57,221 nt of DNA from Candidatus Melainabacteria bacterium (GTDB lineage: Bacteria; Cyanobacteriota; Vampirovibrionia; LMEP-6097): positions 1 through 57,221 of the forward strand of contig JAPPOW010000230.1 in the NCBI GenBank assembly GCA_028817775.1, in the 5' to 3' direction. This document shows positions 1-56,216 of this stretch, piece after piece. The position numbers were made by a program, and so were the translations under genes. Under the pieces are notes generated by a model. That model worked only from the letters and a program-made list of their open reading frames with translations. It had not been told where the DNA came from and made no database searches. Position 1 is the stretch's first letter. Every line of letters starts with the position of its first letter.

Positions 1-120
1 TAAACGATATCACTCATTTCAGGCATATTTTTTCTTTTTCTAACTTTGCCTCTAATTGCCATGGCAAGTTATTTTATCACGCGGGATATTGGGAAATGTA
101 AATATATTCTATAAGAATTG

Positions 121-157
121 GCTTCCCGGGTACCCCAATTTGGGGTACCCGGGAAGC
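121..157. repeat. Perfect 37-nt palindrome GCTTCCCGGGTACCCCA-ATT-TGGGGTACCCGGGAAGC (17-bp stem, 3-nt loop), 22 nt upstream of the likely rsmI start
   Basis: Read directly: 121-137 is the exact reverse complement of 141-157. No T-tract follows on either strand, so it is not a classical intrinsic terminator. Confidence 0.85.
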
Positions 158-178
158 CAAAAAGGCTATAATCTTGCG

Positions 179-862
179 GTGGCTTCTTTATATGTAATTG
201 CAACGCCAATTGGCAATCTTGAGGATATCAGCCTGCGGGCGCTGCGCATACTCAAAGAAGAGGTCAATATAATTTATTGTGAAGATACCCGGGTTACAGC
301 CAAATTGCTCAATTTCTACCAAATTGAGGGCAAAAAACTAATCAGTTTCAATAAGGACAACGAAAATAAGCGAATTAAAGAAATTAAACGGTGTTTAATT
401 AATTCTGAGGACGTGGCAATCTGTTCTGATGCTGGTACGCCATTGGTTTCTGACCCGGGACAAAGCTTAATCACTGCTTGTTTTGAAGATGAGTTTGAGC
501 TGGTACCACTGCCTGGAGCTTCAGCCCTAACTACTGCTTTGTCAGTCTGCCCTATCGACACTTCAAGATTTATATATGAAGGATTTTTGCCGCATAGCCC
601 GCAGAAGCGGCGCCGGGTCTTGCGGGACTTGCTTGGTTCTACTAGACCCATTGTAATTTTTGAAAGCCCACATCGAATTAAAAAATGTCTCGAGGATATT
701 AAAAATATTCTTGGTGAGAAAGAAGTATTTATTGCAAGAGAGCTTACTAAAAAATTTGAGCAACTCTATTATGGTTCGGTGGAGCAAGTACAAGCTCAAC
801 TTGAGGAGCAATTCCCAAAAGATGTTCAGGGTGAGTTTGTATTAGTAATTGGTACTACATAA
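179..862 (+). CDS. rsmI: 16S rRNA (cytidine1402-2'-O)-methyltransferase RsmI
   Basis: Translation carries LYVIATPIGNLEDISLRAL, CEDTR, SDAGTPLVSDPG, PGASA, EGFLP and FESPHR, typical of RsmI. The ORF-track start (TTG 56) reads through the 121-157 palindrome. In-frame GTG at 179 gives the canonical short N-terminus M-ASLYVIATPIGN. Confidence 0.9.
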   Translation: MASLYVIATPIGNLEDISLRALRILKEEVNIIYCEDTRVTAKLLNFYQIEGKKLISFNKDNENKRIKEIKRCLINSEDVAICSDAGTPLVSDPGQSLITACFEDEFELVPLPGASALTTALSVCPIDTSRFIYEGFLPHSPQKRRRVLRDLLGSTRPIVIFESPHRIKKCLEDIKNILGEKEVFIARELTKKFEQLYYGSVEQVQAQLEEQFPKDVQGEFVLVIGTT

Positions 863-886
863 ACCACCTGATATAATTTCTTAACA

Positions 887-1285
887 ATGATTCAAGGAAG
901 AAGAAGCTTGCAGCCTTTGAGCAAGCCTATTACTAGAGAGAGTCTCCGAAGCGACCCACAAACTGCGCGAGCAATGGACGAATCAGATCTCCGCTTGAAA
1001 GCCGGTGAGGGGAATCTTCGTATGGATGAAAATGGTGACTGGGTTGAAAACCGTGCTGATGATGGCACACCGGTACGTGTTCTCAAGCAGCGCTACGAAC
1101 AGAAAACAGGACCTCTCTCAGACCCTCCATTGATTGCTTACGTACCAAAAGCTTTAATCTTGGGGCTTGCATCAGTAGTTGGTCTTCCTTTGCTGGTGAA
1201 TGGCTGCGAGGAAGAAGCAGCTGAAACTACTGAACCCGTTAAGGCATTGCATCTAGCTGAAGCTACTACTGAACCTTCGAACTAA
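887..1285 (+). CDS. Hypothetical small protein with one predicted TM helix
   Basis: ORF only. Charged N-half, hydrophobic stretch ALILGLASVVGLPLLV, acidic tail. No family recognised. The 3' end overlaps the convergent 1266..2771 gene by 20 nt. Confidence 0.4.
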   Translation: MIQGRRSLQPLSKPITRESLRSDPQTARAMDESDLRLKAGEGNLRMDENGDWVENRADDGTPVRVLKQRYEQKTGPLSDPPLIAYVPKALILGLASVVGLPLLVNGCEEEAAETTEPVKALHLAEATTEPSN

Positions 1286-2771
1286 AGAAAGTTTTATTAG
1301 CTGCAGCAGAGTCATGAGTTTTGCAAATCATATCTAGGTATTTGCTAAGTTCTGAATTGACTTGGGGCTTCAAGTCTGGATTGCTTCGTCTGGACGGGGG
1401 CTCCCTGTCATCACCATGGATACTAAGTTTTGGCACCCCTGAATCCTCGCAATGACGGTAAGCTATATAGCGAGCGAGGATTTGCATTTGTTCTTTGGCA
1501 CTCAAAAGTAGTTGCTTACTAGCAACAGTGCGGTATTGCTCATAGACATATTTGAGAGTATTGATGACATCTCCCCGATTAGCGCGCTTCCAGCTTTGAT
1601 CTGATTCTAGATAGAGATCTTGACCAGGCTCAGTGGCAACTAAGAAATCAGCGTCATTGGCTTGATTGACGGAGTCAATTTTTTCAAAACTGAGATAGTT
1701 CCAAGGGATGGCAATATCTGGATGTAAGTGCCAGCCATTGCGTAGAACTTCGTGCATGCTATTACTACCATCATGTCTGCCACTGGCACTACTCTCAGTT
1801 GCCAAACCAGACCAAGAACCGCCCTCCAGATTTAATAATGCTTCAGGTACTGCATCGTAATCACCAAGTAGATTAAAGATCACTCTTACTGCTTGTCCTG
1901 GACTTGCCGTAAACTCAATAGTTTCTCTATTTTGAGGCTGATAATCCTGCTTATGAGCAATGCTATCAATTAATTTTTGGTCGATAGTTATTGATCCACC
2001 TTGGCTGATACTCTGGTAGTTAGTAGCTGCAGCTAGCACTATGACCCAGCGTTCGTCTATTTTGACTTTGTAAATTGGTGAGACTAGAGTATCAGTATAG
2101 TCTTCAACCAAGTTGACTTCTGAAACTAGTTCATTATTTTTGTTGACTTGATAAATCTTGCCCTTGTTAAAACTTGCAGGGCGTTGCTGGAATTTAATCA
2201 CATCCCAGCCACTAAATCTATTGCGTCGGGCAGCTTTGAATGCAGTCTCAGGCATTACGGCAATTGCTAGATTGTTTTTTTTGATACGGTGAGCTTTGAT
2301 ACAGTCACTAAACAAGCCAATATTGCAAAGTCCTTCAGTGAAATGAAAATGATCTACTGCCACATCTTTATACAAAGCCTGGTGTAAATACTTTGCTGCC
2401 ATTGCTTCGATATAGGCGATACTAAAGTCACCAAGAAACTTTTGCCCCGCAATAGCTTGGCTGAGCAAGAGCCCTGAAGGACTAGCTTTGCAGCCCTGTT
2501 GTAATTTGTAGTCCTGCTTGCTATCGCAAAGGAAACCAGCTTCAGCAATTTGATTATTAGTCAGTAAATTACCAAGTTTGAACTTAACAGCTTTACCCTG
2601 CACTAGGACTTCCTGCACCTTTGCAAGTAAAGTCCTAGTACCTGGAAAATTTAGATAGTCAAATTCATCTTCAACTTGAACTGTTGGAGATTTTGCAGGA
2701 GTTGAAGCATCGAACAGCGAAGCCTGCTGTAAAAATTCAATTTCTGAATTTTGTTTAGAATCTATGCTCAC
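1266..2771 (-). CDS. Unassigned 501-aa protein, last gene of the MNIO RiPP operon
   Basis: Long uninterrupted ORF with a GTG start 7 nt after the DUF2063 stop codon (TGA-aatcagg-GTG). No signal peptide or TM segment. No motif I can assign (contains HFHFTEG and GWHLHPD). Confidence 0.6.
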   Translation of the reverse strand: MSIDSKQNSEIEFLQQASLFDASTPAKSPTVQVEDEFDYLNFPGTRTLLAKVQEVLVQGKAVKFKLGNLLTNNQIAEAGFLCDSKQDYKLQQGCKASPSGLLLSQAIAGQKFLGDFSIAYIEAMAAKYLHQALYKDVAVDHFHFTEGLCNIGLFSDCIKAHRIKKNNLAIAVMPETAFKAARRNRFSGWDVIKFQQRPASFNKGKIYQVNKNNELVSEVNLVEDYTDTLVSPIYKVKIDERWVIVLAAATNYQSISQGGSITIDQKLIDSIAHKQDYQPQNRETIEFTASPGQAVRVIFNLLGDYDAVPEALLNLEGGSWSGLATESSASGRHDGSNSMHEVLRNGWHLHPDIAIPWNYLSFEKIDSVNQANDADFLVATEPGQDLYLESDQSWKRANRGDVINTLKYVYEQYRTVASKQLLLSAKEQMQILARYIAYRHCEDSGVPKLSIHGDDREPPSRRSNPDLKPQVNSELSKYLDMICKTHDSAAANKTFFSSKVQ

Positions 2772-2778
2772 CCTGATT

Positions 2779-3492
2779 TCAGTCTATCAGGATATTGGCC
2801 TCTTGCAAATCACCAATTAGCTTCTCTAGGGCCGAAAGCTCGATTTTTAGGCCAAAATGGGCACAAAAACTTTGATGAATTTCTTCTAATCCTTTGCCTG
2901 AGCCTATGGCCTCGATGACAAATAAGGTGGTATTGGACAGAACGAAGCTGCGGTTCTTGAGACTTTCATGATCACGATAGAAGAACACAATCTCGCTTTC
3001 TTCCTCAATATCAGTCTGGCGCAGACTTTCAATATCATCCTCTGTTGTTTTGAGATATTCAATGACTTGTGTTACAGGGTATGAGAACTTCTCAATTTTA
3101 TGAACCGGAGTTAATTTAGAACTTGCTGCTAGATCAGGACTATTGTGGATTAAAACCTCTGTCCACTCATAACGGGCTAGATCACTTAGGAAATTAGGAA
3201 AGTTCTCAGCAAGATCTTCTTCTGAAAGTAATTTATAGAAATCAGCAGCCAGTCTATTGTAGATTGCTGATTTGCTCGGGTAATTATTTTGATAGTGTCG
3301 CATCAAATCATCCCAATCTTCGCCAATAATCTTGCGGCTCAAGGGATAGATGTTCTGCATCAACGAACTAAGGCTACTGACTACCAGTGAGTAATAAACG
3401 CTCAGTTCGCTCTTGGTTTGTTCTGGCAGCTCAGTCGGCTGACCCAGCATAAATTTTTGAATCTCTTGTTGTAGTTGATAGACTTGGTTCAT
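2779..3492 (-). CDS. DUF2063-family partner protein of the MNIO enzyme (HvfC/BufC/MbnC-like role)
   Basis: N-terminal pattern LSVYYSLVVSSLSSLMQNIYPLSRKIIGEDWDDLMRHYQNNYPSKSAIYNRLAADFYKLL...LSDLARYEWTEV matches the DUF2063 signature (vYrnn..l..aL...yP....G..w..l...Y....PS...l...g..F..fL....dlA..Ew). Start taken at ATG 3492 (MNQVYQ), 5 nt after the MNIO stop. The ORF-track ATG at 3522 lies inside a family-A repeat. Confidence 0.75.
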   Translation of the reverse strand: MNQVYQLQQEIQKFMLGQPTELPEQTKSELSVYYSLVVSSLSSLMQNIYPLSRKIIGEDWDDLMRHYQNNYPSKSAIYNRLAADFYKLLSEEDLAENFPNFLSDLARYEWTEVLIHNSPDLAASSKLTPVHKIEKFSYPVTQVIEYLKTTEDDIESLRQTDIEEESEIVFFYRDHESLKNRSFVLSNTTLFVIEAIGSGKGLEEIHQSFCAHFGLKIELSALEKLIGDLQEANILID

Positions 3493-3497
3493 GATTT

Positions 3498-4409
3498 TTA
3501 TACCTGGATTGCCGCGTCGCATGCGCTCCTCGCAACGACGCCTTGTATTTGTTTTAATTCTTCGACTAATTCTTTAAGCTCAGGGAAATTAGAATCGCGC
3601 TCAAGCAAGATAGCATTGACTTCAGTTCTTGCAAGTAGTTGCCGCAAAATTTCATAAACTTCATCGATGATTCCTTCACCATGAGTATCTAGGATTTCAA
3701 TTTTGTGACCGGTGTGAGAGTGGTAACCATTGAGGTGACCAGCTATATGTACTTGCACAACCCGTTCTAGCATTAGTGAATCAAGAAACTCTACTGGCTG
3801 GTAATTGCCATGATTAGTGGCGTTGACATAGATATTATTGACGTCAAGCAACATACCACAATCTGCCTGCTCCAAAATTGAATTGATAAACTGAGCTTCA
3901 CTCATTTCTGCATCGATAATCGTTGAATAGAAACTTGGATTCTCAACTAAAAATGGAAGTTGGAATTCATCTTGTAAAAATTTAACGTTATCGGCAATGA
4001 TATCCACTGACTCCTGAATCATTGGCACTGGAATTAGGTTCTGTAAGTAGTATTCACCAACACGAGTGCAGGAAATATGGTCAGAGAACCAAGGTGCTTC
4101 GATTTGCTGGAATAGTTCTTTGCAGCCATCAATCAGGTAAGGATCAAAACAGGGCTTACCGGGAGTCTCGGGCGCTGTGCCTATACTAAGATTCACGCCA
4201 TGAGGAATCAATGCTACGCCACTATCAAGTACTTCTTGAAACTGCTGGGCTTTGCGTCCGCCTAAGTAGATATAGTTTTCTGGAACGATTTCTAACCATT
4301 CGATGAGACCGGTATTATTCTCACTGCTATAAAAATCTAAAGTTTCTTGAGTTAGAGCTCGGCGTAATCCTAATCCTAGACCTGCCTTGCTTAGTTTGTT
4401 TTTGTCCAT
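3498..4409 (-). CDS. DUF692 / MNIO (multinuclear non-heme iron oxidative) enzyme
   Basis: GLGLRR...IEWLEIVPENY...IPHGVNLSIG...WFSDHIS...LPFLVENPSFY...LLDVNNIYVNATNHG...VQVHIAGH is the TIM-barrel DUF692 pattern (MbnB/TglH/HvfB/BufB family). Start ATG 4409 has AGGA 8 nt upstream. The alternative ATG at 4418 sits inside a family-A repeat. Confidence 0.85.
   Translation of the reverse strand: MDKNKLSKAGLGLGLRRALTQETLDFYSSENNTGLIEWLEIVPENYIYLGGRKAQQFQEVLDSGVALIPHGVNLSIGTAPETPGKPCFDPYLIDGCKELFQQIEAPWFSDHISCTRVGEYYLQNLIPVPMIQESVDIIADNVKFLQDEFQLPFLVENPSFYSTIIDAEMSEAQFINSILEQADCGMLLDVNNIYVNATNHGNYQPVEFLDSLMLERVVQVHIAGHLNGYHSHTGHKIEILDTHGEGIIDEVYEILRQLLARTEVNAILLERDSNFPELKELVEELKQIQGVVARSACDAAIQV
3506..3539 (-). 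repeat. Family-A hairpin element, TTGC/GCAA stem variant (copy A10), forming the last ~12 codons of the MNIO gene
   Basis: Minus-strand read GTC-GTTGC-GAGGAGCGCATGCGACGCG-GCAAT-CC has the same architecture as the other family-A copies. It is translated as ...GVVARSACDAAIQ. Confidence 0.7.
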
Positions 4410-4413
4410 CACT

Positions 4414-4495
4414 GTCATCCTGAGCTGCGTAGCAGCGTCAGGATCCCATTATCGCACACAGGAGATCCTGACGTCACTTCGTTCCTCAGGATGAC
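4414..4495. repeat. Inverted dimer of family-A hairpin elements (A1 4414-4447 forward, A2 4461-4495 reverse)
   Basis: GTCATCCTGAGCTGCGTAGCAGCGTCAGGATCCC, a 13-nt spacer, then GGAGATCCTGACGTCACTTCGTTCCTCAGGATGAC. The same tail-to-tail dimer layout recurs at 52597-52693. Confidence 0.85.
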
Positions 4496-4497
4496 AT

Positions 4498-4524
4498 AAA
4501 AAAAGCCCCGGCAGAGCCAGGGCT
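4498..4524 (-). terminator. Intrinsic terminator/attenuator just downstream of the RiPP precursor gene
   Basis: Minus-strand read AGCCCTGGC-TCT-GCCGGGGCT followed by TTTTTTT. It lies between the precursor stop (4552) and the MNIO start. Confidence 0.65.
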
Positions 4525-4551
4525 TTATAATCAAATTAAGTAAGTCAATTA

Positions 4552-4809
4552 CTACTTAACGTGCTCTCCGCATTTGCCTTCGCCGCACTTGTGCTCACCA
4601 CATTCGTGTTCACCGCACTCATGCTCTCCGCATTTGCCTTCGCCACATTTGTGATCGCCACCACTAATAAGTAGTGAAGAAGAGCTAGTCTCACTAATAC
4701 TGAAAATTGTTTCAGCATTAACATCGATTTCTGGAGCAGTAATTGCACCAGCGTTTAATGCTGTAGCAAGGCCTAATGCTAATGCAGCAGCTTTAACTTT
4801 CTTTTTCAT
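4552..4809 (-). CDS. RiPP precursor: Sec signal peptide plus six (K/E)CGE(G/H) pentapeptide repeats (oxazolin/bufferin EGKCG-like class)
   Basis: ATG 4809 is preceded by AAGGAG. The 85-aa product is MKKKVKAAALALGLATALNAGA|ITAPE...SGGD-HKCGEGKCGEH-ECGEHECGE-HKCGEGKCGEH-VK. It sits immediately upstream of MNIO+DUF2063. The ORF-track start at 4866 adds an implausible CCC-containing extension. Confidence 0.85.
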   Translation of the reverse strand: MKKKVKAAALALGLATALNAGAITAPEIDVNAETIFSISETSSSSLLISGGDHKCGEGKCGEHECGEHECGEHKCGEGKCGEHVK

Positions 4810-4848
4810 CTGTTGTAATCTCCTTTGTTTGTCCGAACAACAGCAGAA

Positions 4849-4887
4849 ATTATATACTTTAATCAAGAAATGACACCTAATTTCTTG
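4849..4887. promoter_or_regulatory. Candidate promoter (-10 TATAAT on the minus strand at 4849-4854) overlapped by an 8-8-8 palindrome CAAGAAAT-N8-ATTTCTTG (4864-4887), in the divergent precursor/porin intergenic region
   Basis: Read directly. Position is appropriate for the precursor promoter and for an operator shared with the divergent gene at 4945. No experimental support. Confidence 0.3.
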
Positions 4888-4944
4888 GCATTAATTTGAC
4901 CAAGATAAAAGACAAGTCTTTTGCTATCGCAAGGGAATAAAACA

Positions 4945-6129
4945 GTGGTGGGCAAAAAGTTTTGTTTATTAATAGCTTTGCTTTGTTTGACTAGTCAAAC
5001 TGTAATGGCGATTCAATTTAAGGATGGAGATCTTGAAGCTGGCAAAGTCATTAATCTTTCTCAGCTTTTGGATAAATCAGAATTACATTTCGACACAATT
5101 TTTAGTAACGATTGGACCGGTGGCAGAGCGGGTGGCAACACCAACCCACATCGAGCATTTATTGATTATAGAGTCGAAGGACACTTGCCTCTCTATAATT
5201 TAGCTGGCAATCGAGGACGTTTGATCACTCGAGTACAAGGGCTGGGTTTCGTTGATGAGAATATAGATGATTTTGTTGAGGATCCCTTGCTTGATATTCC
5301 TGAATTGTTTTGGCAAAACGATAAACAACTTGGTGATAATGATTTGAGATTTGTCTTTGGTAAGTTTGCCAATAGAAGGTTCTTTAACAAGGATGAAATT
5401 AATCCTGATCCATTTGATATTGGGGAGATGCGTTTCTCTGGTGCTCTTGCTAATAGCTTAAATTTATTCAATTCAATCAATGAGTTCAGAGATTCTGATT
5501 TGCGCTTCTCTGGAAGTCGTCAAGCTAGTGGTTCTTATGGTTTCAATTTTGCAATCAAAAATCAAGCTGAGCAAGGTTTATTCAGCCGCTGGGGTTTCCA
5601 GCAAGCATTGGCTGTTAGTCAACTGGATGATTTCAAGTCTAACTTTTATGGAATTTCTGAACTTAATAAAGATTGGGGCAGGCAAAAACCAGGGCGCTTG
5701 AGTATGGGCTTGGTCTACGCTAATGATGCGGTATTTCGTTTGGCAAATAATGATGAGAATAGTTACTTGTTCTATTCTTCATTGGTACAAAAACTAACAG
5801 ATAGACTCAAGTTTTATTTCCGCTATGGTACTTTGTTTAGAAATTTAAATTCTGGTGCTAGTAACAATAATGAATATAGATTAGGTTTCTACTATAAGTG
5901 GACTGACAAAATTGCTACTCACAATTGGCTTGGTTACTTTGATAATGATGTAGCACTAGCTGAGGAGGATGAGCGCTTCCACTGGGTTAATGTGCTGACT
6001 TATAAATTCAATAAAAATTTCTTTGCTAATTTTGCTGCGGTCTTTAGGTTTAATCAAGGCAATTCAGCAGCTACTGGCGCTAGTGACAATAACTATACTC
6101 TGGCTACTCAGTTACGGGTCTTCATGTAA
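4945..6129 (+). CDS. Putative outer-membrane beta-barrel (porin-like) protein
   Basis: Signal peptide VGKKFCLLIALLCLTSQTVMA. Abundant alternating aromatic/polar segments (FYFRYGTLF, YRLGFYYKW, WVNVLTYKF). C-terminus YTLATQLRVFM resembles a beta-signal. Family (possibly OprB-like) not confirmed. Start is uncertain (TTG 4921, GTG 4945 or 4948). Confidence 0.5.
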   Translation: MVGKKFCLLIALLCLTSQTVMAIQFKDGDLEAGKVINLSQLLDKSELHFDTIFSNDWTGGRAGGNTNPHRAFIDYRVEGHLPLYNLAGNRGRLITRVQGLGFVDENIDDFVEDPLLDIPELFWQNDKQLGDNDLRFVFGKFANRRFFNKDEINPDPFDIGEMRFSGALANSLNLFNSINEFRDSDLRFSGSRQASGSYGFNFAIKNQAEQGLFSRWGFQQALAVSQLDDFKSNFYGISELNKDWGRQKPGRLSMGLVYANDAVFRLANNDENSYLFYSSLVQKLTDRLKFYFRYGTLFRNLNSGASNNNEYRLGFYYKWTDKIATHNWLGYFDNDVALAEEDERFHWVNVLTYKFNKNFFANFAAVFRFNQGNSAATGASDNNYTLATQLRVFM

Positions 6130-6137
6130 GAGTTAGG

Positions 6138-6178
6138 GAGGTCCTGACGTCACACCTTTGGTGTTCCTCAGGATGACA
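6138..6178 (-). repeat. Family-A hairpin element (A3) between the convergent porin-like gene and hisB
   Basis: Reverse read: GTCATCCTGAGGAACACCAAAGGTGTGACGTCAGGACCTCCC. Confidence 0.85.
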
Positions 6179-6183
6179 GGATT

Positions 6184-6771
6184 TTATATTATACCTTTGG
6201 TACTACGGATTTCATTAGCAATCCGAGCATCAACTGTCTTGGCTTTGTCAAAAGCCAATGCAAAAGCTTTGAAACTCGCTTCAATAATATGGTGTGAATT
6301 AGCGCCAGAGATTTTGTGGAAGTGAATCACCATACCGGTGTTGTTAACTAGTGCACGCCAGAACTCAATACAGAGCTCGGTCTCAAAAGTATTGATGCGC
6401 TCCTTATCAACTGGCACATCGTAAACCAAATAAGGTCTAGTACCAAGATCAATATCACAACTAACTAGTGCTTCGTCCATCACTACTCGGGCTGAAGCGT
6501 AGCGGCGGATACCCTTGCGTTCACCCAATGCTTCTTTGATAGCTTGTCCAATGACTATACCAGTATCTTCGACACTGTGATGGTCATCGATTTCATGATC
6601 GCCTTTGGTTTGGACACTTAAATCTATAAATGAATGCCTGCGGAATTGCTCAAGCATATGATCAAAAAATGGCACGCCAGTATTGATATCACCTTGGCCA
6701 GAGCCATCTAGGTTGATTTCAACAGAGACTGAGGTTTCTTTGCTGTCGCGGTTAATACTTGCTTTGCGCAT
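6184..6771 (-). CDS. hisB: Imidazoleglycerol-phosphate dehydratase
   Basis: RETKETxV-like start (RDSKETSVSVEINLDG), GVPFFDHMLEQ, DDHHSVEDTGIVIGQA, SGANSHHIIEASFKAFA: full-length IGPD pattern. Confidence 0.93.
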   Translation of the reverse strand: MRKASINRDSKETSVSVEINLDGSGQGDINTGVPFFDHMLEQFRRHSFIDLSVQTKGDHEIDDHHSVEDTGIVIGQAIKEALGERKGIRRYASARVVMDEALVSCDIDLGTRPYLVYDVPVDKERINTFETELCIEFWRALVNNTGMVIHFHKISGANSHHIIEASFKAFALAFDKAKTVDARIANEIRSTKGII

Positions 6772-6808
6772 AAGTTTATTATTCCCAGATGGAAAAGTAT
6801 AGCAATTT

Positions 6809-6841
6809 GGGGATCCTGACGCCTTACAGGCTCAGGATGAC
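6809..6841 (-). repeat. Family-A hairpin element (A4), short form
   Basis: Reverse read: GTCATCCTGAGCCTGTAAGGCGTCAGGATCCCC. Confidence 0.8.
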
Positions 6842-6846
6842 AAAGG

Positions 6847-8169
6847 CTACATTCCTAACATTTCTTCTATATACTGCAGTTCTTCTTCAGTATATCCAAG
6901 CAAGGCATCAATAATTTCATTGAGTTGTGAGTTTTTGTAATCAGTTTTGTTACGAACTTGTTTCTTGGCTTGTTCTAGCAAATCTTGAGTATCTAAGTAA
7001 AGTGCTTCTGCTTCTTCAAAATCAGCAAAGTCACCTTCATCAAGTTCTAGACCACCTTCACTAAAACGTTTGCAAGCAAGAACAATCTTTTGGTAAACAT
7101 CGACATCTTCATCGGTACCAATTTTCTTTTCTTTCTCGAAATAGCCAATGGCTTCATCCATATTGTTCTTGACTTTGACCCATGGATCATCCTCGAGTGA
7201 CTTAAGACTCTTGCGAACAATAAGCAAATAATCTGACTCTTGATCAGAGAGATTTAGTGCTTGTGAATTTTCCTTGGTGAGTTCTTCCTCTGGTTGAGCT
7301 GCCAAAGTTTCTACTGGAGCATCTTCTAGAGCTGGTGCTCCAGGGATTGGCTCCGCTTCGTGTTCTTCAACTTTGTGCTCGCTATGACTTTCTTCAGCAG
7401 CATGTTCTTCTTCAGCAACTGGCTTGAATTTCTCTTCTTCTAGTTCAACTACTGGTGCCTTGCCACCACCAAGAACTTGGTTGAGAAAGACAGTTACTTC
7501 ATCAGTAGTTTTGTGTTCTGTATGTTCAGCTTCCTCTGTGTGACTTGTTTCTTCATGATGAGTACTAATTTCATGTCCATGGGCTTCATGACTGGTGTGA
7601 ACTGTAGAACTCGTCACAGTTTCAGTGTGGATAGAACTTGCCCCATGAGCGGTATGAGTTTGTACTGGAGGCTGAGAAACTTTGTGCTCAGTTTTGACTT
7701 GAACTTGTGGCTCGCGTTTGTGCACTATTGGAGCAGGTGCTGGATGTACTGGCTCTGGCTTATGAACTTCTTCGTGCCTCGGTTCTTCTTTCTTGGGATG
7801 AGTTTCCAGGACTCGTGGTGCCCGGTCCTGATGATGAGCCTGTGCATGGTGAGTTGTTTCATGAGCTTCAGGAGCGTGATGATGTTCTTCTACCACTGCT
7901 GCTGGTGGTGTATCATGCACAGTCTCAGTTTTATGTTCTATTGATTCTGGAACAAGTACTGGCGCTGCTTCTACCGGAGCTTGCACTGCTTCTTGTGGAA
8001 TAAAAGGCTGCTTAGTCACTGGGGCAGCTTTGCGTTGCTGGTAGTTTGCATGACGAGCGCGGGCTCGCTGCAGTAATTCTTGCAATCTGGCGTTATCCTC
8101 ACCAAGAGCACTAACGCTAGCCGGAAACGCGAGCAAAGAAATTAGAGCTAAGCTGATCTTTTTGGACAT
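6847..8169 (-). CDS. Secreted His/Glu/Pro-rich low-complexity protein with an acidic helical C-terminal domain
   Basis: Signal peptide MSKKISLALISLLAFPASVSA. Long tracts such as HHHAPEAHETTHHAQAHHQDR and HTSHEAHGHEISTHHEETSHTEEAEHTEHK. No family recognised. Two plus-strand ORFs in the same interval are compositional mirrors. Confidence 0.6.
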   Translation of the reverse strand: MSKKISLALISLLAFPASVSALGEDNARLQELLQRARARHANYQQRKAAPVTKQPFIPQEAVQAPVEAAPVLVPESIEHKTETVHDTPPAAVVEEHHHAPEAHETTHHAQAHHQDRAPRVLETHPKKEEPRHEEVHKPEPVHPAPAPIVHKREPQVQVKTEHKVSQPPVQTHTAHGASSIHTETVTSSTVHTSHEAHGHEISTHHEETSHTEEAEHTEHKTTDEVTVFLNQVLGGGKAPVVELEEEKFKPVAEEEHAAEESHSEHKVEEHEAEPIPGAPALEDAPVETLAAQPEEELTKENSQALNLSDQESDYLLIVRKSLKSLEDDPWVKVKNNMDEAIGYFEKEKKIGTDEDVDVYQKIVLACKRFSEGGLELDEGDFADFEEAEALYLDTQDLLEQAKKQVRNKTDYKNSQLNEIIDALLGYTEEELQYIEEMLGM

Positions 8170-8220
8170 GAATATAAGGTCCTGCGATATTATTATGGCA
8201 AGACCTAAATATTATAAGCG

Positions 8221-9012
8221 ATGAATCTTCAAGCCAAAATCCAAGAATTAGTAGAAAGTCCAGAACGCTTTCTGGATCCGGCACATAATGAGTATTTACT
8301 TGCTAATAAGAGTTCGCCTGAGATTGCCGAATACCTCAAAAAAGACCAGCGGGTCATCCTGCCATTGGGTTCTACCGAGCAGCATGGTCCAGATGGAATC
8401 CTTGGGATAGATCATATTACTGCTACTGGAATTGCTTATGCTGTGGCCCAGCTCACCGGAGTTCTCTGCGCGCCGCCACTTAATTACGGAATGGCAATGC
8501 ACCATCTTGGCTTCCCTGGGACAATGGCACTACGTCCCACTACTTATATCAATCTCATTTGTGATTTGATTCATTCTTTAAAACGTCATGGTTTTAAGAA
8601 GGTGATTGTGATTAATGGTCACGGCGGCAACAAGGGACCCTTCATGAACGCGCTTGCTGAGCGCGAAGATGAGTTTGCAGAGATGGATTTTAGTTTTGTT
8701 AATTGGTGGGTGATGCCTGGTTTGCAAAAAAATATCATCGATAAATATTTTGCTGAGAAGGAAGGTTACCATGCAACACCAACAGAAATTTCTGTGACTA
8801 TGGCTTTGGTGCCAGAAGCTATGACTATGCCTGATTCATATACTTGTCCTCAAGCTCAGGTTGATAATGACAACTGCGCTTGGGTGATGCCTGGTAAGTT
8901 TAGAGAGTACTATCCTGATGGAGTGATGCGGGCTGATTACTCTGGGTCTACCCAGCAGATAGGTAAAGAAACGCTGGCTTATGCTTTGACTGAGATTTGT
9001 GAATTGATTTAA
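8221..9012 (+). CDS. Creatininase-family amidohydrolase
   Basis: ILPLGSTEQHGPDG..., GFPGT..., VINGHGGN: the creatinine amidohydrolase/MftE-type fold signature. Confidence 0.75.
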   Translation: MNLQAKIQELVESPERFLDPAHNEYLLANKSSPEIAEYLKKDQRVILPLGSTEQHGPDGILGIDHITATGIAYAVAQLTGVLCAPPLNYGMAMHHLGFPGTMALRPTTYINLICDLIHSLKRHGFKKVIVINGHGGNKGPFMNALAEREDEFAEMDFSFVNWWVMPGLQKNIIDKYFAEKEGYHATPTEISVTMALVPEAMTMPDSYTCPQAQVDNDNCAWVMPGKFREYYPDGVMRADYSGSTQQIGKETLAYALTEICELI

Positions 9013-10055
9013 GCCCAATAGGTTTCCACTGCAAAAATAAATTGCTCAATAAAGATTTGTTTGAGATAGCTAAGATTATTCTGCTCATAAAAAATTAGCA
9101 GAGCTTTTTTATATTCTGCTTCATCAATATTACGGTATGAAAGTGGGCAATAGTTATGAGCGAGCAGGATGGCATTGGTTAAAGTTCTGCTGGTTCTTTT
9201 GTTACCATCTTCGTAAGCTTGCAAGTAAGCAATGAGAGCCATGGTTGCAAGTGCTTTGCAGAAAATATTGTCAATTTGATTGATAGCCACACAGCTTGCT
9301 TCAAGTGCTTCTTGGATTTGAAATTGATTGTCAAGTGGTTTGTAGTTGGTGCCACCAATCCTTACTGGATTGGTTCGGATACCAGCTTTGACGTTAAGTT
9401 CTTTAGTCAGAATTTCATGTAGTACTGAGACTTTGCTGCTGCTGATTGTTTGGAAGAGTTCAGCTTGTTCTAAGATGTAATCGATTGCTGCCTTGTGGTT
9501 GAGTAGCATGATGGCTTCATCTTTGGTTTTGCCTGCTGCTGTTCTCTGGGTTTTGAGTAAGGTTTCAGTTTCAAGTAGTGTGTAGGTGTTGCCTTCAATT
9601 TTGGATGATTTCCAGGCAAAGTCTATGGTGAAGATTTCTAAGTTTTTTTTGATTAAAGTTTGACCGAGCAATTTTCTGTTTGCTTTGTATTGTTGATTTG
9701 CTTCTTGTAGCCTGGCTAATTCATCTTCAGTAAAAACTTTTTCTTGGGATTCAAGAACCTGCTCAATAATTTCTGGCTTGAAATTGCTGATAATTTTTCT
9801 TTCATTGAATTCTTTGTAGAAGTATTCTTGTGGATTAATTTCATGAATTAGTTGGTAAGCTTTGGAAAGTTTGTATTTGCTAGCGCGAGCTTTGCCAGTT
9901 GTGCTGACTAAGTTTTGTTTGCGCAGTTCTAGGAGATCTCTATTAAGACTGGCTCTAGAGATTTTAATTCCTTCTTCTTTGAGCGAGGCAAGGATTTCAT
10001 CGTGGCTTAGCTCTTTATTTTGAAGAATTTTGAGTATATTTAAGTATCTGCTCAT
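9009..10055 (-). CDS. Fic/DOC-family protein with N-terminal wHTH and a degenerate Fic motif
   Basis: EGNTYTLLETETLLK (Fic N-terminal element), then QAYEDGNKRTSR where the canonical motif is HxFx(D/E)GNGRxxR (catalytic His is Gln, second Gly is Lys). The N-terminal segment (LKILQNKELSHDEILASL...SRASLNRDLLEL) looks like a winged helix. Confidence 0.7.
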   Translation of the reverse strand: MSRYLNILKILQNKELSHDEILASLKEEGIKISRASLNRDLLELRKQNLVSTTGKARASKYKLSKAYQLIHEINPQEYFYKEFNERKIISNFKPEIIEQVLESQEKVFTEDELARLQEANQQYKANRKLLGQTLIKKNLEIFTIDFAWKSSKIEGNTYTLLETETLLKTQRTAAGKTKDEAIMLLNHKAAIDYILEQAELFQTISSSKVSVLHEILTKELNVKAGIRTNPVRIGGTNYKPLDNQFQIQEALEASCVAINQIDNIFCKALATMALIAYLQAYEDGNKRTSRTLTNAILLAHNYCPLSYRNIDEAEYKKALLIFYEQNNLSYLKQIFIEQFIFAVETYWA

Positions 10056-10207
10056 TTTTTGATTGTATCTGTCCCTATTATACCTTTGAGTGTCCTGATT
10101 TTAGCACTTTTGTGAGTAGATTCCTGGATTGGGCTTTTTGCGGACTAGATGATATGGATTAGCGTACTCTAATCTAAAATTTAGTAGATTGTGGCATAAT
10201 ATAGTTA

Positions 10208-11467
10208 GTGTACTCAAGAATAGAATACTCTAAAATATATCAATCTAAAGATCAGCCTGAGATTACGGTTCTATTGGGCCCTAGACAAGTTGGTAAGACT
10301 ACCCTGATTAAAGCTCTACAGGAAGAGCTCGGTGGTCTCTATTTTGACTTGGATATTCTGAGTAATTATGAACGAGTCAAGAGCTATGAAGATTTTTTGC
10401 AGACCCTTAAGCTTAATGGTTACCGAGAGGAGCAGCAAGAAAAATTCTATATCTTTCTTGATGAGTTTCAGCGTTACGCTGATCTGACCATGGTCTTCAA
10501 AAATATTTATGACCATCATCCTAATGTAAAAATTTTTGCAACAGGTTCATCTTCCTTCACTATCAAAAATCAGATACAAGAAAGTCTGGCAGGGCGCAAA
10601 AAAATCTTTCATCTTTACCCGCTTAATTTTGAAGAGTTTTTGATTTTTAAAGAACGTGATGATCTGTTAGAACAATTACGTAATCTTAGAACTATCACTC
10701 AAACAAGTAAGATGAATACTGAAATAGAACTTTATACTTTGCTAGAGGAGTTTATGATTTGGGGCGGTTACCCAGGGGTTGTGCTTGCTCCAAGCACAGA
10801 GGAGAAGAAAGAAAAATTACAAAGTATTTTTGATGCTTTCATCAAAAAAGATCTCGTTGACTATCTCAAAATCGAAAAATTTCTTGCAGCAAAGCGGCTC
10901 ATAGAAAGTATTGCAATTAATAATGGACAGATAGCCAATTACAATAACTTTGCTCAGTATGCTGATATCAACGCGGTGACAGTTAAGAACTATATTGAAT
11001 TATTGCGTGAGACTTTTATTATCATGGAGCTAAGACCTTTCTTTCGTAATAAAAATAAAGAAGTGAGCAAGGCGCCTAAATTATATTTCTTGGACAATGG
11101 TGCAAGGAATTTTTTTATTAACAATTTTAATCCATTACACTTGCGTCAAGATGCCTCATTTTTGTTTGAGGGATATTTTATTTCTGAATTTTATAAGACT
11201 TGTCTTGAGTGGGATCAAATCAAATATTAACGAGACAAAAATCAAGTCGAAGTTGATTTAGTTTATGACCTAGTCCATAAGCAAATTCCAATTGAAATTA
11301 AATATAAGGCAGAGTCAAAGTATGATGACTTTTCTGGTTTGCGCAGGTTTATTCAGGAGTATCATTCTAGTGAAGCTTATATGGTTAATCTTGGACAAAT
11401 AGGGGAGGCTCAACACAAGGGCTATGAGCAGATTAAGTACCTTAGTTGTTTAACAAATATCTTGTAA
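10208..11467 (+). pseudogene. AAA+ ATPase of the DUF4143 type, interrupted by an in-frame TAA at 11228-11230
   Basis: P-loop GPRQVGKTT and Walker B FLDEFQ. After ...DQIKY-TAA the same frame continues RDKNQVEVDLVY...IPIEIKY...* to 11467. This is the usual C-terminus of the family (yWR..g.EVDfv...IEVK). The stop sits where Trp is expected. Confidence 0.7.
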
Positions 11468-11495
11468 ATCTCAACAGTGGAGACGGCCCCATCAT

Positions 11496-12176
11496 CTAAT
11501 GTAATTTTGCAATATCAGTAATCATAGTTTCACTATCCTTATGATTACCTGAACTAATAATCGGATCTTTTTCTTTGTTCTTCTCGTGCCACCAGCCAAC
11601 AAATGCTTCAACTACCGCTGGATCAAATTGAGAACCAGAAAATCTGATAATTTCTTCAAGCCCTTCTTCTGGTGAACGCGCTGGCATATAGACGCGGTTG
11701 GTAGTCATGGCATCATAGGCATCAGCCACTGTAGTGATCTTAGCAATGAATGGAATCTCATCACCATCAAGTCCATGAGGGTAGCCCTTACCATCAATAC
11801 GTTCATGGTGGAATAAAATTGGTTCAAGACAACGCTTCAAAGTTGGTACTTGAGAAATTATATTGGCACCCAAAATGACATGGGTTTTCATAATGGTAAA
11901 TTCTTCAGCTGTCAGTGAGCTAGGCTTGAATAGTACGTCATCCTTGATACCAATCTTACCGATATCATGTAATAACGAGCCACCTTCCAGGTTAAATTGG
12001 TCTTCTTCACTCAGGTCAAAGCTTTTGCCTAAGTCCTTCGACATCTTATATACGCGGTAACTATGGCCACTGGTATATGGGTCCTTGGTTTCAAGGGCAT
12101 ATATCAACGCTTTGGCGATATTATAAAATTCTTCTCCGCTCATATGAGCCATTTCACCTACTATGTCGTCCATCAA
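11496..12176 (-). CDS. HD-GYP domain protein (putative cyclic-di-GMP phosphodiesterase)
   Basis: HSYRV, LLHDIGKIGI, HHERIDGKGYPHGL: HD and GYP motifs present. Stand-alone domain with no receiver. Confidence 0.85.
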   Translation of the reverse strand: MMDDIVGEMAHMSGEEFYNIAKALIYALETKDPYTSGHSYRVYKMSKDLGKSFDLSEEDQFNLEGGSLLHDIGKIGIKDDVLFKPSSLTAEEFTIMKTHVILGANIISQVPTLKRCLEPILFHHERIDGKGYPHGLDGDEIPFIAKITTVADAYDAMTTNRVYMPARSPEEGLEEIIRFSGSQFDPAVVEAFVGWWHEKNKEKDPIISSGNHKDSETMITDIAKLH

Positions 12177-54218: not shown

Positions 54219-55348
54219 TTACGAAGTAACCCCGCAACCCTCTCAATATCCCCAGCTTCATGAATAGAATTAATACAAATCCTTAAACGAGGATTAGGCA
54301 CTGTTGGTGGTCTAATTGCCACAACTAGGTAACCCGCTTCTTCTAACTCTTTGGCTTTAGCTTGAGCAGCTTCAGTGCTTGGCATATGAATTGCAAATAT
54401 CGGAGTGCCTTCGTTTGAGTAGTTGATCAATGCATTGGATTGCCACGTAGAGCTACGCTCTCCTCGCAATGACGTTTCAAACAACTCAATATTTTTTTGT
54501 AATTGATCACGCAATTCTTTACCTGCTGAAATTTCTTGCAAATGTTTAAGTGCAATTTGAGCTTGCAATGGAGGGTTTGCTGTTGAATAAATAAATGTTC
54601 GTGATTTGTTCTTGAGAAATTCAATTAATTCCTTGGAGCCAGCTATATAACCGCCTTCGAGCCCACCAGCTTTGGAGAGAGTACCCATTTGCACCACTAT
54701 ATTGTCCTTGGTGATCTTGCCAGCTTCAACTAATTCTTCAACCAAGCCAGCCCCATGGGAGCCAAGTACTCCAGTGCCATGAGCTTCATCGATATAGATG
54801 GAGGCATTGTTGGCTTGAGCAATTTCATTAATTTCGGGAAGTTTAGCTTTGTCACCATCCATACTGAAGACTGATTCAGTAACGATGAGTGATTTCTTGC
54901 CTTTGCTGCGGTGTTCTTGAATTAATTCTGCTAGATGTTTTGTGTTGTTGTGCTTATAGAAATATTTTTTAGCGCCGCTGAGTCTGATGCCATCTAAGAT
55001 ACAAGCATGGACATATTCATCAGCAAAAACAATATCGCGTGAGTTAAGAATTACAGAAAGTGTGCCGAGGTTAGCCATATAGCCGCAGTTGAAAATTAAG
55101 GCTGCTTCAGCCCCCTTCCACTGAGCGATAAAGTTTTCTAATTCTATGTGTTCATTGAATGTGCCACTAGTGATGCGTGAAGCACTAGCTCCGCGACGTG
55201 AAGCTGTCAGTGATAAGTCTCTGCGAGCTAAGCCTAAGTAATCATTAGAGCTAAAACTAATTAGATTAGAATCATAAACTTGTGCTTGGCGGTATAGATT
55301 TTTCTCACGCGCCTTGTTTAACTCTTCACTAAAGAACTCATTAAACAT
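54215..55348 (-). CDS. bioF: 8-amino-7-oxononanoate synthase-like PLP-dependent acyltransferase (BioF/Kbl family)
   Basis: [47 protein letters not shown] (PLP lysine). Start ATG 55348 overlaps the ubiX stop (ATGTTTAA). The ORF-track extension to 55516 runs into ubiX. Confidence 0.8.
54437..54473 (-). repeat. Family-A hairpin element, TTGC/GCAA variant (A11), in-frame inside bioF
   Basis: Minus read GTC-ATTGC-GAGGAGAGCGTAGCTCTACGTG-GCAAT-CC, translated [12 protein letters not shown]. Confidence 0.75.
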
Positions 55349-56216
55349 TGGCGTAACTTGGTGACTGCCGAGCTTGATCCCAGCGGTTGAAGTTCTCGTT
55401 TTCAATTCCAAAAACATCAAGCGCTTTGCCGCAAACAAATTTGACCATATCATCAATGCTTTGTGGTTTTTTGTAGAAGCCTGGACTTGCTGGTAGGACG
55501 ATTGCTCCCATCTCACTAAGCTTAAGCATATTAGTCAGGTGAATTGAACTAAGCGGGGTTTCACGTGCCATCAAAACTAGCTTACGACGCTCTTTGAGAC
55601 AAACATCAGCCGCTCTTGCAATCAAGTTATTAGAAGTGCCTGCTGCAATATTAGCGATACTGCCCATGCTACAAGGTGCAATGATCATACCTTGACTTTT
55701 GTAAGAACCTGAAGCGATTGAAGCCGTGATATCATCTGCTGCCCATAAAGTTAGCTCATGGCTGGTAGCTGATGCTTGATGGCTACTTTGGCTATAGCTT
55801 GGACTAGTTGTAGTTGGAGTAGCTTCGTTGAGGTCGTATGACAAACCTTGCTTGTATTTATTTTTTAATTCACGCTTACGTTTGAGTTCTAATTTTTTTT
55901 CTTCTATTTTTGAGGAGATACTTGTTTGTCTTGGACTAGGGTTTGGACTTGGAGTCCCAAAACTGGATTGCTTCGTCACTAGCGTTCCTCGCAATGACGA
56001 CCCGGTGCCAACATAATTTAAGATTTGTGACTTGCGCTGCTCCAGTTCGCCGTAGAGTTCTAGTCCGAGTTCGTGTTTAGCTACTTTGGTGGCGTTCTCT
56101 GAGAGTACTAGGTCTATCTTTTGCCCTTGTTGGAGCAAAAACTTGAGCAAGGCAAATCCATAAGGAGCTCCGCTGGCTCCGGTGATGGCTAAGGTGATGG
56201 GTTTACTTTGAGTCAT
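55341..56216 (-). CDS. ubiX: Flavin prenyltransferase UbiX with a ~85-aa low-complexity insertion
   Basis: [14 protein letters not shown] at the N-terminus. From [33 protein letters not shown]...[20 protein letters not shown]...[13 protein letters not shown] onward it is colinear with E. coli UbiX as recalled from memory. Residues ~70-153 have no counterpart. Confidence 0.88.
55965..55998 (-). repeat. Family-A hairpin element, TTGC/GCAA variant (A12), in-frame at the start of the UbiX insertion
   Basis: Minus read GTC-ATTGC-GAGGAACGCTAGTGACGAA-GCAAT-CC, translated [11 protein letters not shown]. Same reading frame as the bioF copy. Confidence 0.75.

Follow-up and report, generated by a model that had tools for sequence, protein, structure and literature searches.

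The 57,221-nt stretch of Candidatus Melainabacteria DNA analyzed here (contig JAPPOW010000230.1 of assembly GCA_028817775.1; hereafter the window) carries a gene for a 501-amino-acid (aa) protein on its minus strand, at positions 1266 to 2771, directly behind a cluster of hvfA-, hvfB-, and hvfC-like genes. We find a known system, the hvf operon, that carries a new protein family: the 501-aa gene belongs to the operon, and a role of its product in maturing the hvf peptide, a peptide made on ribosomes and modified after translation (RiPP), is unlikely. The gene directly follows hvfC in 12 of 15 sampled lineages, and it is retained under unchanged purifying selection in a lineage from which hvfB and hvfC have been deleted. 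We tentatively favor an autonomous enzyme that is co-expressed with hvf and possibly serves the same stress physiology.

The 501-aa gene and its protein family

The open reading frame (ORF) at 1266 to 2771 is a genuine gene for a soluble cytoplasmic protein. Its GTG start lies 7 nt past the stop of the DUF2063 gene (hvfC), as an earlier note on this DNA had placed it: the DUF2063 ORF ends at 2779, and the spacer occupies exactly 2772 to 2778 of the same minus strand, with no terminator-like site. This GTG is the sole plausible start because the next in-frame start, codon 52, falls within conserved sequence and conservation begins by residue 25; homologues align at residues 25 to 28 (SLFD) and then continuously from residue 39. 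The protein was also said to lack a signal peptide, transmembrane segments, and recognizable motifs, and this holds. Its highest 19-residue Kyte-Doolittle mean is only 0.97, so that neither a transmembrane segment nor a signal peptide is present, and a motif scan of the protein saw no Walker A, GxGxxG, HExxH, CxxC, S-adenosylmethionine motif I, or GxSxG. That the ORF is real follows from strong purifying selection. The ratio of nonsynonymous to synonymous substitution rates (dN/dS) is 0.066 against the closest orthologue, which is 82% identical (L012; such L-numbers label the loci compared with the window), and 0.07 to 0.13 in other pairs.

Pfam, NCBIfam, and PDB sequence searches (phmmer for PDB) with the 501-aa protein returned zero matches, as did a profile search of PDB with the family. 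Pfam searches with all 17 family members at E values up to 10, GH57 included, were likewise empty, as were NCBIfam searches with 29 family members and PHROGs and PADLOC searches with the family. A word-indexed search recovered 17 homologue clusters of 478 to 555 aa at 34 to 79% identity. A profile hidden Markov model run against 1.84 billion representative proteins returned 23 at E ≤ 1e-3, 16 of them at E ≤ 1e-30, and beyond the family it matched only fragments and one low-complexity false match. The remote-homology search that had been proposed as a check recovers the small family itself, and the protein is an orphan in that it matches no known family, though not in the strict sense, since the 17 clusters and 23 profile representatives exist.

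All traceable members among the 23 representatives come from metagenome-assembled genomes of Melainabacteria. A scan of 185,579 species-representative genomes that relied on two peptide patterns, and so gives a lower bound, located seven loci titled Candidatus Melainabacteria, Candidatus Caenarcanales, or Cyanobacteriota. The protein thus founds a very small family that is confined to Melainabacteria (Candidatus Caenarcanales and relatives). The contigs of L015, L016, and L017 (CAZKAT01, CAZELI01, and CAZKFA01) are titled "uncultured Gammaproteobacteria bacterium"; their synteny is melainabacterial and their housekeeping proteins are 70 to 87% identical to those of the window, so this label is probably a taxonomic error. 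A mobile or plasmid origin of the gene was rejected, as tblastn found no match in 72,556 plasmids.

The family alignment holds about 50 invariant columns, with conservation reaching down to 30 to 34% identity. Invariant positions include E122, D140-H141, K235, E310, E316-G-G-S-W320, I355-P-W357, and Y359-L360, and N358 is conserved in at least 90% of the family; the conserved motifs are VDHF, SPIYKVK, PEALLNLEGGSW, SGRHxGxNSMHEV, IPWNYL, and ExxQxWK. AlphaFold2 modeled the whole protein from the 17-sequence alignment with a predicted TM-score (pTM) of 0.80 and a mean predicted local distance difference test score (pLDDT) of 77, and residues 36 to 395 from 29 sequences with a pTM of 0.87 and a pLDDT of 86. 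The predicted fold proceeds from an alternating beta/alpha core through a six-strand, beta-rich insertion (residues ~178 to 263) to a C-terminal bundle of three long helices, and it also shows a conserved mobile loop, SxSGRHxGxNSMHEV. In the model, E122, D140-H141, K235, E310, and E316-GGSW are placed at or right after strand ends. Conserved polar residues after strands are typical of alpha/beta enzymes, and this placement of conserved acidic, His, and Lys residues suggests that the protein is an enzyme. We regard it as a probable enzyme on the basis of its conservation pattern and predicted fold.

Foldseek searches of the full model against PDB and BFVD, and of the model of residues 36 to 395 against PDB, gave nothing below an E value of 1e-3. 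The structure prediction and fold search suggested in the earlier note thus yield confident models, yet no significant neighbor in PDB or BFVD. The top matches belong to GH57 (4cmr, E of 0.04 to 0.05 and TM-score of 0.17 to 0.29; also 1k1w/1k1x), and the remaining weak matches are mostly pieces of TIM-type barrels; a very divergent (beta/alpha)-barrel is accordingly best called a lead and not a result. Three family assignments were tried and rejected. A divergent paralogue of the oxidative enzymes that depend on multinuclear non-heme iron (MNIO; PF05114, MbnB/TglH/ChrH) finds no Pfam match, and hhalign against eight melainabacterial MNIOs gives a probability of 0.6%. HvfC partner proteins combine an N-terminal DUF2063 domain with a C-terminal domain resembling a RiPP recognition element; the 501-aa protein matches neither PF09836 nor NF050145, and the true HvfC is encoded at 2779 to 3492. 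DoxX proteins are small integral membrane proteins with several transmembrane helices, and membership in that family (PF07681) fails on the low hydropathy given above and on the absence of a Pfam match.

Association with the hvf genes and its loss

The window operon has the sequence hallmarks of an oxazolin/bufferin-type hvfA-hvfB-hvfC cluster, that is, of a system for a predicted MNIO-modified, Sec-exported metal-binding peptide. The hvfA-like precursor gene (4552 to 4809, minus strand; identified by NF050137 and orthologue alignment) encodes 85 aa from ATG 4809, with a Sec-type signal peptide and a C-terminal (D/E)HKCGEGKCG repeat region that has six Cys residues. Its product passes NF050137 (KCGExKCG_twice) with 21.8 bits against a cutoff of 19.5 and qualifies as an HvfA/Buf_EGKCG oxazolin precursor. 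The mechanical hvfA ORF (4552 to 4866, minus strand) opens at a TTG and spans 104 aa, but orthologues and a promoter-like site at 4849 to 4876 indicate that ATG 4809 is the true start (85 aa, beginning MKKKVKAAALALGL). The hvfB-like gene for the MNIO (DUF692) peptide maturase lies at 3498 to 4418 of the minus strand (PF05114, 8.6e-78), and its product scores 237 bits with NF003818 HvfB (cutoff 360) and 222 bits with NF050167 BufB (cutoff 310). The hvfC-like gene for the DUF2063 partner follows at 2779 to 3492 of the minus strand (PF09836, 2.9e-10; NF050145 69 bits, under the 142-bit cutoff). Its likely true start is ATG 3492 (MNQVYQLQQEI), where the N terminus fits the orthologue consensus MxxLYxIQQEI, and a longer ORF from 3522 opens inside a repeat element.

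In nontypeable Haemophilus influenzae (NTHi), the hvf operon comprises the HvfA precursor, the HvfB MNIO, the HvfC DUF2063 partner, and DoxX (HvfX) as a fourth gene, and HvfB and HvfC suffice in vitro for the six Cys modifications of HvfA (PMC11252979). Oxazolin biosynthetic gene clusters consist of RiPP, MNIO, DUF2063, and DoxX genes; among the ~2,000 to 3,000 clusters surveyed, the extras are DoxX and, rarely, oxidored_molybd or ferric-reductase genes (PMC12452194). That survey (Antoine et al. 2025) mentions neither Cyanobacteria nor Melainabacteria and reports no gene like the 501-aa gene (PMC12452194). The window resembles the NTHi operon in its Sec-signal precursor with KCGExKCG repeats, its MNIO and DUF2063 partner, the A-B-C order, and the presence of a fourth gene, and, like the bufferin/Buf_EGKCG-oxazolin clusters, it joins an MNIO and a DUF2063 partner to a precursor that has a signal peptide and Cys motifs (PMC12452194). 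In contrast to NTHi, a proteobacterium, the melainabacterial operon has a fourth gene that sits downstream of hvfC and encodes a soluble 501-aa protein for which no relation to DoxX is detectable; the NTHi DoxX gene is upstream of hvfA. The HvfB (237 versus 360 bits) and HvfC (69 versus 142 bits) of the window also fall under the NCBIfam equivalog cutoffs. No DoxX gene was found in the hvf loci that carry the 501-aa gene.

In 12 of the 15 sampled lineages, the 501-aa gene follows hvfC immediately and in the same orientation, at identities down to ~33%. The order hvfA-hvfB-hvfC-gene is found in the window and in L012, L001/L014/L025, L003/L015, L016, L024/L026, L022, L010/L017, L007, L019-L021/L029, and L027/L028. 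On the deep branch L108/L109 (33% identity; 8360 to 11590), the order is RNase HII-MNIO-HvfC-gene, with an upstream flank that differs from the others; no KCG-repeat precursor was found there within 10 kb, so that the precursor is of another type or encoded elsewhere. We also scanned metagenomes with HvfC as the seed. Wherever an HvfC relative was close (≥35% identity) and enough sequence was available, the gene followed it; beside the more distant HvfC relatives of other phyla it was never present. In the short contig L031, HvfC is 35% identical and the downstream ORF runs off the contig, with a family match of only 17 columns at 22% probability. Adjacency to hvfC and the seeded scan together show that homologues are not confined to settings without an MNIO.

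The gene is most likely co-transcribed with the hvf genes by read-through from the hvf promoter, as judged from same-strand spacing of 4 to 59 nt and from the absence of a terminator at the junction; a consensus scan of the window saw no terminator-like site between hvfC and the gene. The earlier note went further in calling the gene translationally coupled. This is too strong: the gaps between hvfC and the gene measure 4 to 59 nt in 10 loci and the two genes never overlap, unlike hvfB and hvfC, for which five of nine loci show a 4-nt overlap, so strict translational coupling is unsupported. The adjacency survives flank changes on both sides (L007, L021, L001, and L108). The surrounding block creatininase-p440-IGPD-...-rsmI-S18-L28-aroC (IGPD, the histidine-biosynthesis gene hisB) is syntenic across the same lineages, and the 501-aa gene is usually convergent with rsmI and overlaps it.

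Co-occurrence with MNIO and DUF2063 genes, which had been proposed as a check, is not strict within the stretches compared. Three lineages keep the gene without hvfBC beside it, two by deletion (L005/L006; L018 with L105-107) and one by relocation (L008/L009), with 4 to 21 kb around each gene covered in these genomes. In L005/L006, the locus reads IGPD, a 75-aa Sec peptide, and then the gene, hvfBC having been cleanly deleted. The signal and linker regions of the L005 peptide (7622 to 7849) are clearly homologous to HvfA; it has zero Cys residues and an Asp/Glu/His-rich tail, DDEDGEHYNHDDDEQNNHDDDDEV, as does L006, and L027, a close relative, still has hvfABC and an 8-Cys HvfA. This may record a change in metal binding, from thiooxazoles to carboxylate/imidazole groups. 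In L018 and L105-107, IGPD is followed by a 119-nt gap and the gene, with hvf genes absent there, and L007, the sister of this lineage, has the full cluster and a common downstream arylsulfotransferase insertion. In L008/L009, the gene sits elsewhere, behind DoxX, SBP_bac_5, and an uncharacterized 254-aa gene. The same-strand array in L008 (5035 to 9575) reads DoxX (a weak Pfam match), SBP_bac_5, the 254-aa gene, the 501-aa homologue, and an RNA m5U methyltransferase; this single instance of DoxX near the gene may be coincidence, and the 254-aa protein was rejected as a cryptic HvfC. HvfA-like KCG-repeat ORFs were not found in L108/109, L005, L105, L008, or L018.

In all three uncoupled lineages, the gene is full length and keeps the family's invariant residues. 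The hvf-less pair L018-L105, the sole close pair available among these lineages, gives a dN/dS of 0.133 at a dS of 0.24, compared with 0.09 to 0.13 at a dS of 0.10 to 0.45 in pairs that have hvf. Neighbor-joining trees, which are distance trees without support values, place three independent uncouplings on an ancestral hvfBC-gene adjacency.

Repeats, signals, and neighboring genes

A palindromic element lies inside the 501-aa coding sequence at 1378 to 1457 (minus strand, ~codons 439 to 465), with ends CGTCATTGCGAGGA and ACGAAGCAATCC and 54 nt between them. The earlier note saw here a half copy of a repeat. The 13-mer on which this drew (1378 to 1390) is indeed an exact match and recurs within the window solely at 55965; such a lone identity is unremarkable because the window holds 364 identical 13-mer pairs, against 64 to 82 in shuffles. 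The other arm of this ~35-nt palindromic element, CGTCATTGCGAGGA, is at 1444 to 1457, with exact copies at 54461 and 55986 and a one-mismatch copy at 3527. Both arms bracket a private 63-nt in-frame insertion that the DNA alignment shows to be absent from L012, L014, and L001, so the element is a tolerated in-frame insertion with both ends present and not a half copy. The 21 extra residues fall in a loop modeled by AlphaFold as disordered (residues 445 to 463), and the 86-nt repeat-bearing coding segment folds no better than shuffled sequence (z = −0.16).

Palindromic elements also punctuate the rest of the operon. A second copy of the element just described, an A-type repeat, CGTCGTTGCGAGGAGCGCATGCGACGCGGCAATCC, at the hvfB/hvfC junction (3504 to 3540, minus strand) encodes the C-terminal tail of the MNIO, GVVARSACDAAIQV, and creates the spurious upstream ATG (3522) of hvfC; in L027 (1323 to 3023), a related element supplies a linker (VIASS...PRNDD) through which MNIO and HvfC become a single ORF of 566 aa. 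B-type palindromic repeats, a second family of small elements, form an inverted pair, GTCATCCTGAGGA...GACGTCAGGATC, at 4413 to 4496 (no strand assigned) between hvfA and hvfB, overlapping the ATG annotated for the MNIO. B-type elements number about nine copies across the window, two-mismatch matches included and some inside ORFs; the others are at ~6165, 6829, 22806, 30577, 49879, 52597, and 52681. The promoter-like site upstream of hvfA (4849 to 4876, minus strand) is GTGTCA-16-TATAAT, with 10 of 12 matches, and a strong terminator-like hairpin stands right after hvfA at 4502 to 4526 (minus strand; 11 pairs, 7 of them G-C, then the T-run TTTTTATG); both are consensus matches only. The hairpin may serve as an attenuator by which the ratio of precursor to enzymes is set, with precursor in excess. 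L005 has a similar inverted repeat and T-run past its peptide gene (~7868 to 7899). As for regulatory RNA in positions 1 to 9000, the candidates were rejected as sub-threshold hairpin matches to microRNA families.

The 3′ end of the 501-aa gene overlaps the ORF at 887 to 1285 by 20 nt, as the earlier note had it. That ORF (plus strand, 132 aa, called in NCBI) has one hydrophobic segment and lies in a locally GC-richer stretch (0.46 to 0.47); apart from a 99%-identical sibling it has no known relative, none of the related loci has it, and its status as a gene is uncertain. At 118 to 160, a perfect 21+21-nt palindrome, TTGGCTTCCCGGGTACCCCAA T TTGGGGTACCCGGGAAGCCAA, lies in the mechanical N-terminal extension of the rsmI ORF, and rsmI homology begins at about residue 38 to 42 in most loci. 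On the other side of the operon, a 440-aa signal-peptide protein (6847 to 8169, minus strand) has a long His/Glu/Pro-rich central region (HHHAPEAHETTHHAQAHH...) and no Pfam domain. It is syntenic in all related loci, is well conserved in its C-terminal ~130 aa only, and is a possible metal-binding protein of the periplasm encoded close to the hvf operon. Between IGPD and hvfA, and divergent from hvfA, a 402-aa signal-peptide protein (4921 to 6129, plus strand) has no family match and an outer-membrane beta-barrel-like composition; its gene is an insertion that the window shares with its closest relative, L012/L013, alone.

Possible roles of the 501-aa protein

As the last cistron of the melainabacterial hvfA-hvfB-hvfC operon, the gene would be expressed by read-through from the hvf promoter, an arrangement by which its expression may have become tied to the operon early in the clade. 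As an autonomous enzyme, the protein would act on a cytoplasmic substrate other than the Cys residues of HvfA and may serve the same metal or oxidative-stress physiology. That it stands outside the Cys-modifying machinery is argued by the sufficiency of HvfB and HvfC in characterized systems, and its hvf-independent function is argued by the purifying selection that persists unchanged after hvfBC deletion. A gene dedicated to maturation would be expected to decay or be co-deleted, and the 501-aa gene is intact, which makes such a role unlikely. Several considerations pull against an autonomous enzyme. For the word enzyme, the conservation pattern and the predicted fold, which suggest it, are the whole basis, and co-transcription is a plausible deduction from gene arrangement. 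The adjacency to hvfC appears ancestral and never interrupted, as would also be expected of a true pathway member, and synteny of the whole region is so highly conserved in the clade that adjacency carries limited information in either direction. A role directed at the peptide would fit L005, where the gene stays beside a surviving peptide derived from HvfA. Finally, hvfBC could have relocated in the hvf-less genomes: their absence applies to the 4 to 21 kb covered around each gene, and an MNIO may still act in trans.

The earlier note pointed to the position as one usual for accessory tailoring, export, or immunity genes, and the corresponding reading is a dedicated cytoplasmic RiPP accessory that acts on the HvfA precursor (as another tailoring enzyme, as a chaperone or holdase before export, or as an immunity factor) and replaces DoxX as the fourth gene. 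It would account for the conserved place behind hvfC, which extends to ~33% identity and to the deep L108 with its different upstream flank; for the recurrence of the gene behind every independently found close HvfC relative with enough sequence; for the lack of DoxX genes in these loci; and for the HvfA-derived signal-peptide gene beside the gene in L005. We nevertheless consider it unlikely. The gene is kept under equal constraint after the deletion of hvfBC and hvfA in L018/L105-107 (dN/dS 0.133) and is kept after relocation without hvf in L008, so that it persists in three lineages without adjoining hvfBC. The family is confined to one clade and 23 representatives, and it goes unreported in the published oxazolin-cluster surveys of other phyla (PMC11252979, PMC12452194). 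HvfB and HvfC alone complete the modification in vitro (PMC11252979), and the gene has no overlap-type coupling with hvfC, whereas hvfB and hvfC are usually coupled. A more specific version, in which the family founds a new fold of cytoplasmic RiPP accessory enzymes or chaperones that act on Sec-targeted HvfA-type peptides before export and recognize leader or linker in place of the Cys core, seems to us similarly improbable. It would explain the gene beside the Cys-less, His/Asp-rich L005 peptide and the absence of DoxX from the melainabacterial clusters.

More credible than these, though still doubtful, is an unrelated passenger: an old, clade-specific, housekeeping-type gene of the IGPD-rsmI locus whose adjacency to hvfC reflects frozen synteny. 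The syntenic block from creatininase to aroC, the usual convergence and overlap with rsmI, and persistence without hvf all fit. Against this, the flank rearrangements in L007, L021, L001, and L108 never split the gene from hvfC unless hvfBC is deleted, and every lineage to which the family can be traced has the hvf cassette at the locus or had it recently; the passenger differs from the co-expressed autonomous enzyme solely in the existence of a physiological link. Least probable, as a sub-hypothesis about fold, is a very divergent member of the GH57/glycoside hydrolase-deacetylase (beta/alpha)7-barrel group with a C-terminal helical domain and a carbohydrate substrate, for which the hvf position would be incidental. 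GH57 enzymes have a (beta/alpha)7 barrel, five conserved sequence regions, a catalytic Glu nucleophile, and an Asp acid/base. They supply the best Foldseek matches of both models (4cmr, with a probability of 0.75 over 442 columns for the full model; 1k1w/1k1x), and the other weak matches are TIM-type barrel pieces. The Pyrococcus maltose-forming amylase (4cmr) and the Thermococcus litoralis 4-alpha-glucanotransferase (1k1w) share the co-linear architecture, with a helical C-terminal domain behind an alpha/beta core, and conserved acidic residues follow strands at AYIE122A and NLE316GGSW. However, the TM-score is at most 0.29 at a root mean square deviation of ~14 Å, the E values (at least 0.04) are far from significant, no sequence-profile signal connects the protein to any Pfam or PDB family, and the GH57 signature regions (HQP and similar) are unrecognizable in it.

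Melainabacteria are the non-photosynthetic sister group of Cyanobacteria, and the window extends the oxazolin/bufferin-type MNIO peptide system to this group, which the published survey of the MNIO landscape does not mention. The loci compared here record a stepwise decay of a metallophore operon, with a Cys-less, His/Asp-rich peptide after loss of the MNIO, a complete deletion, and an MNIO-HvfC pair without a nearby precursor. In this clade, the usual DoxX gene is absent from the hvf loci, and the gene appended there encodes a conserved soluble protein whose fold is confidently predicted yet unmatched. Should that protein act together with the secreted peptide, it would represent a new class of RiPP accessory factor; otherwise, it is still a clean case of a clade-restricted, strongly constrained family without a structural neighbor and shows how operon position can mislead functional inference.

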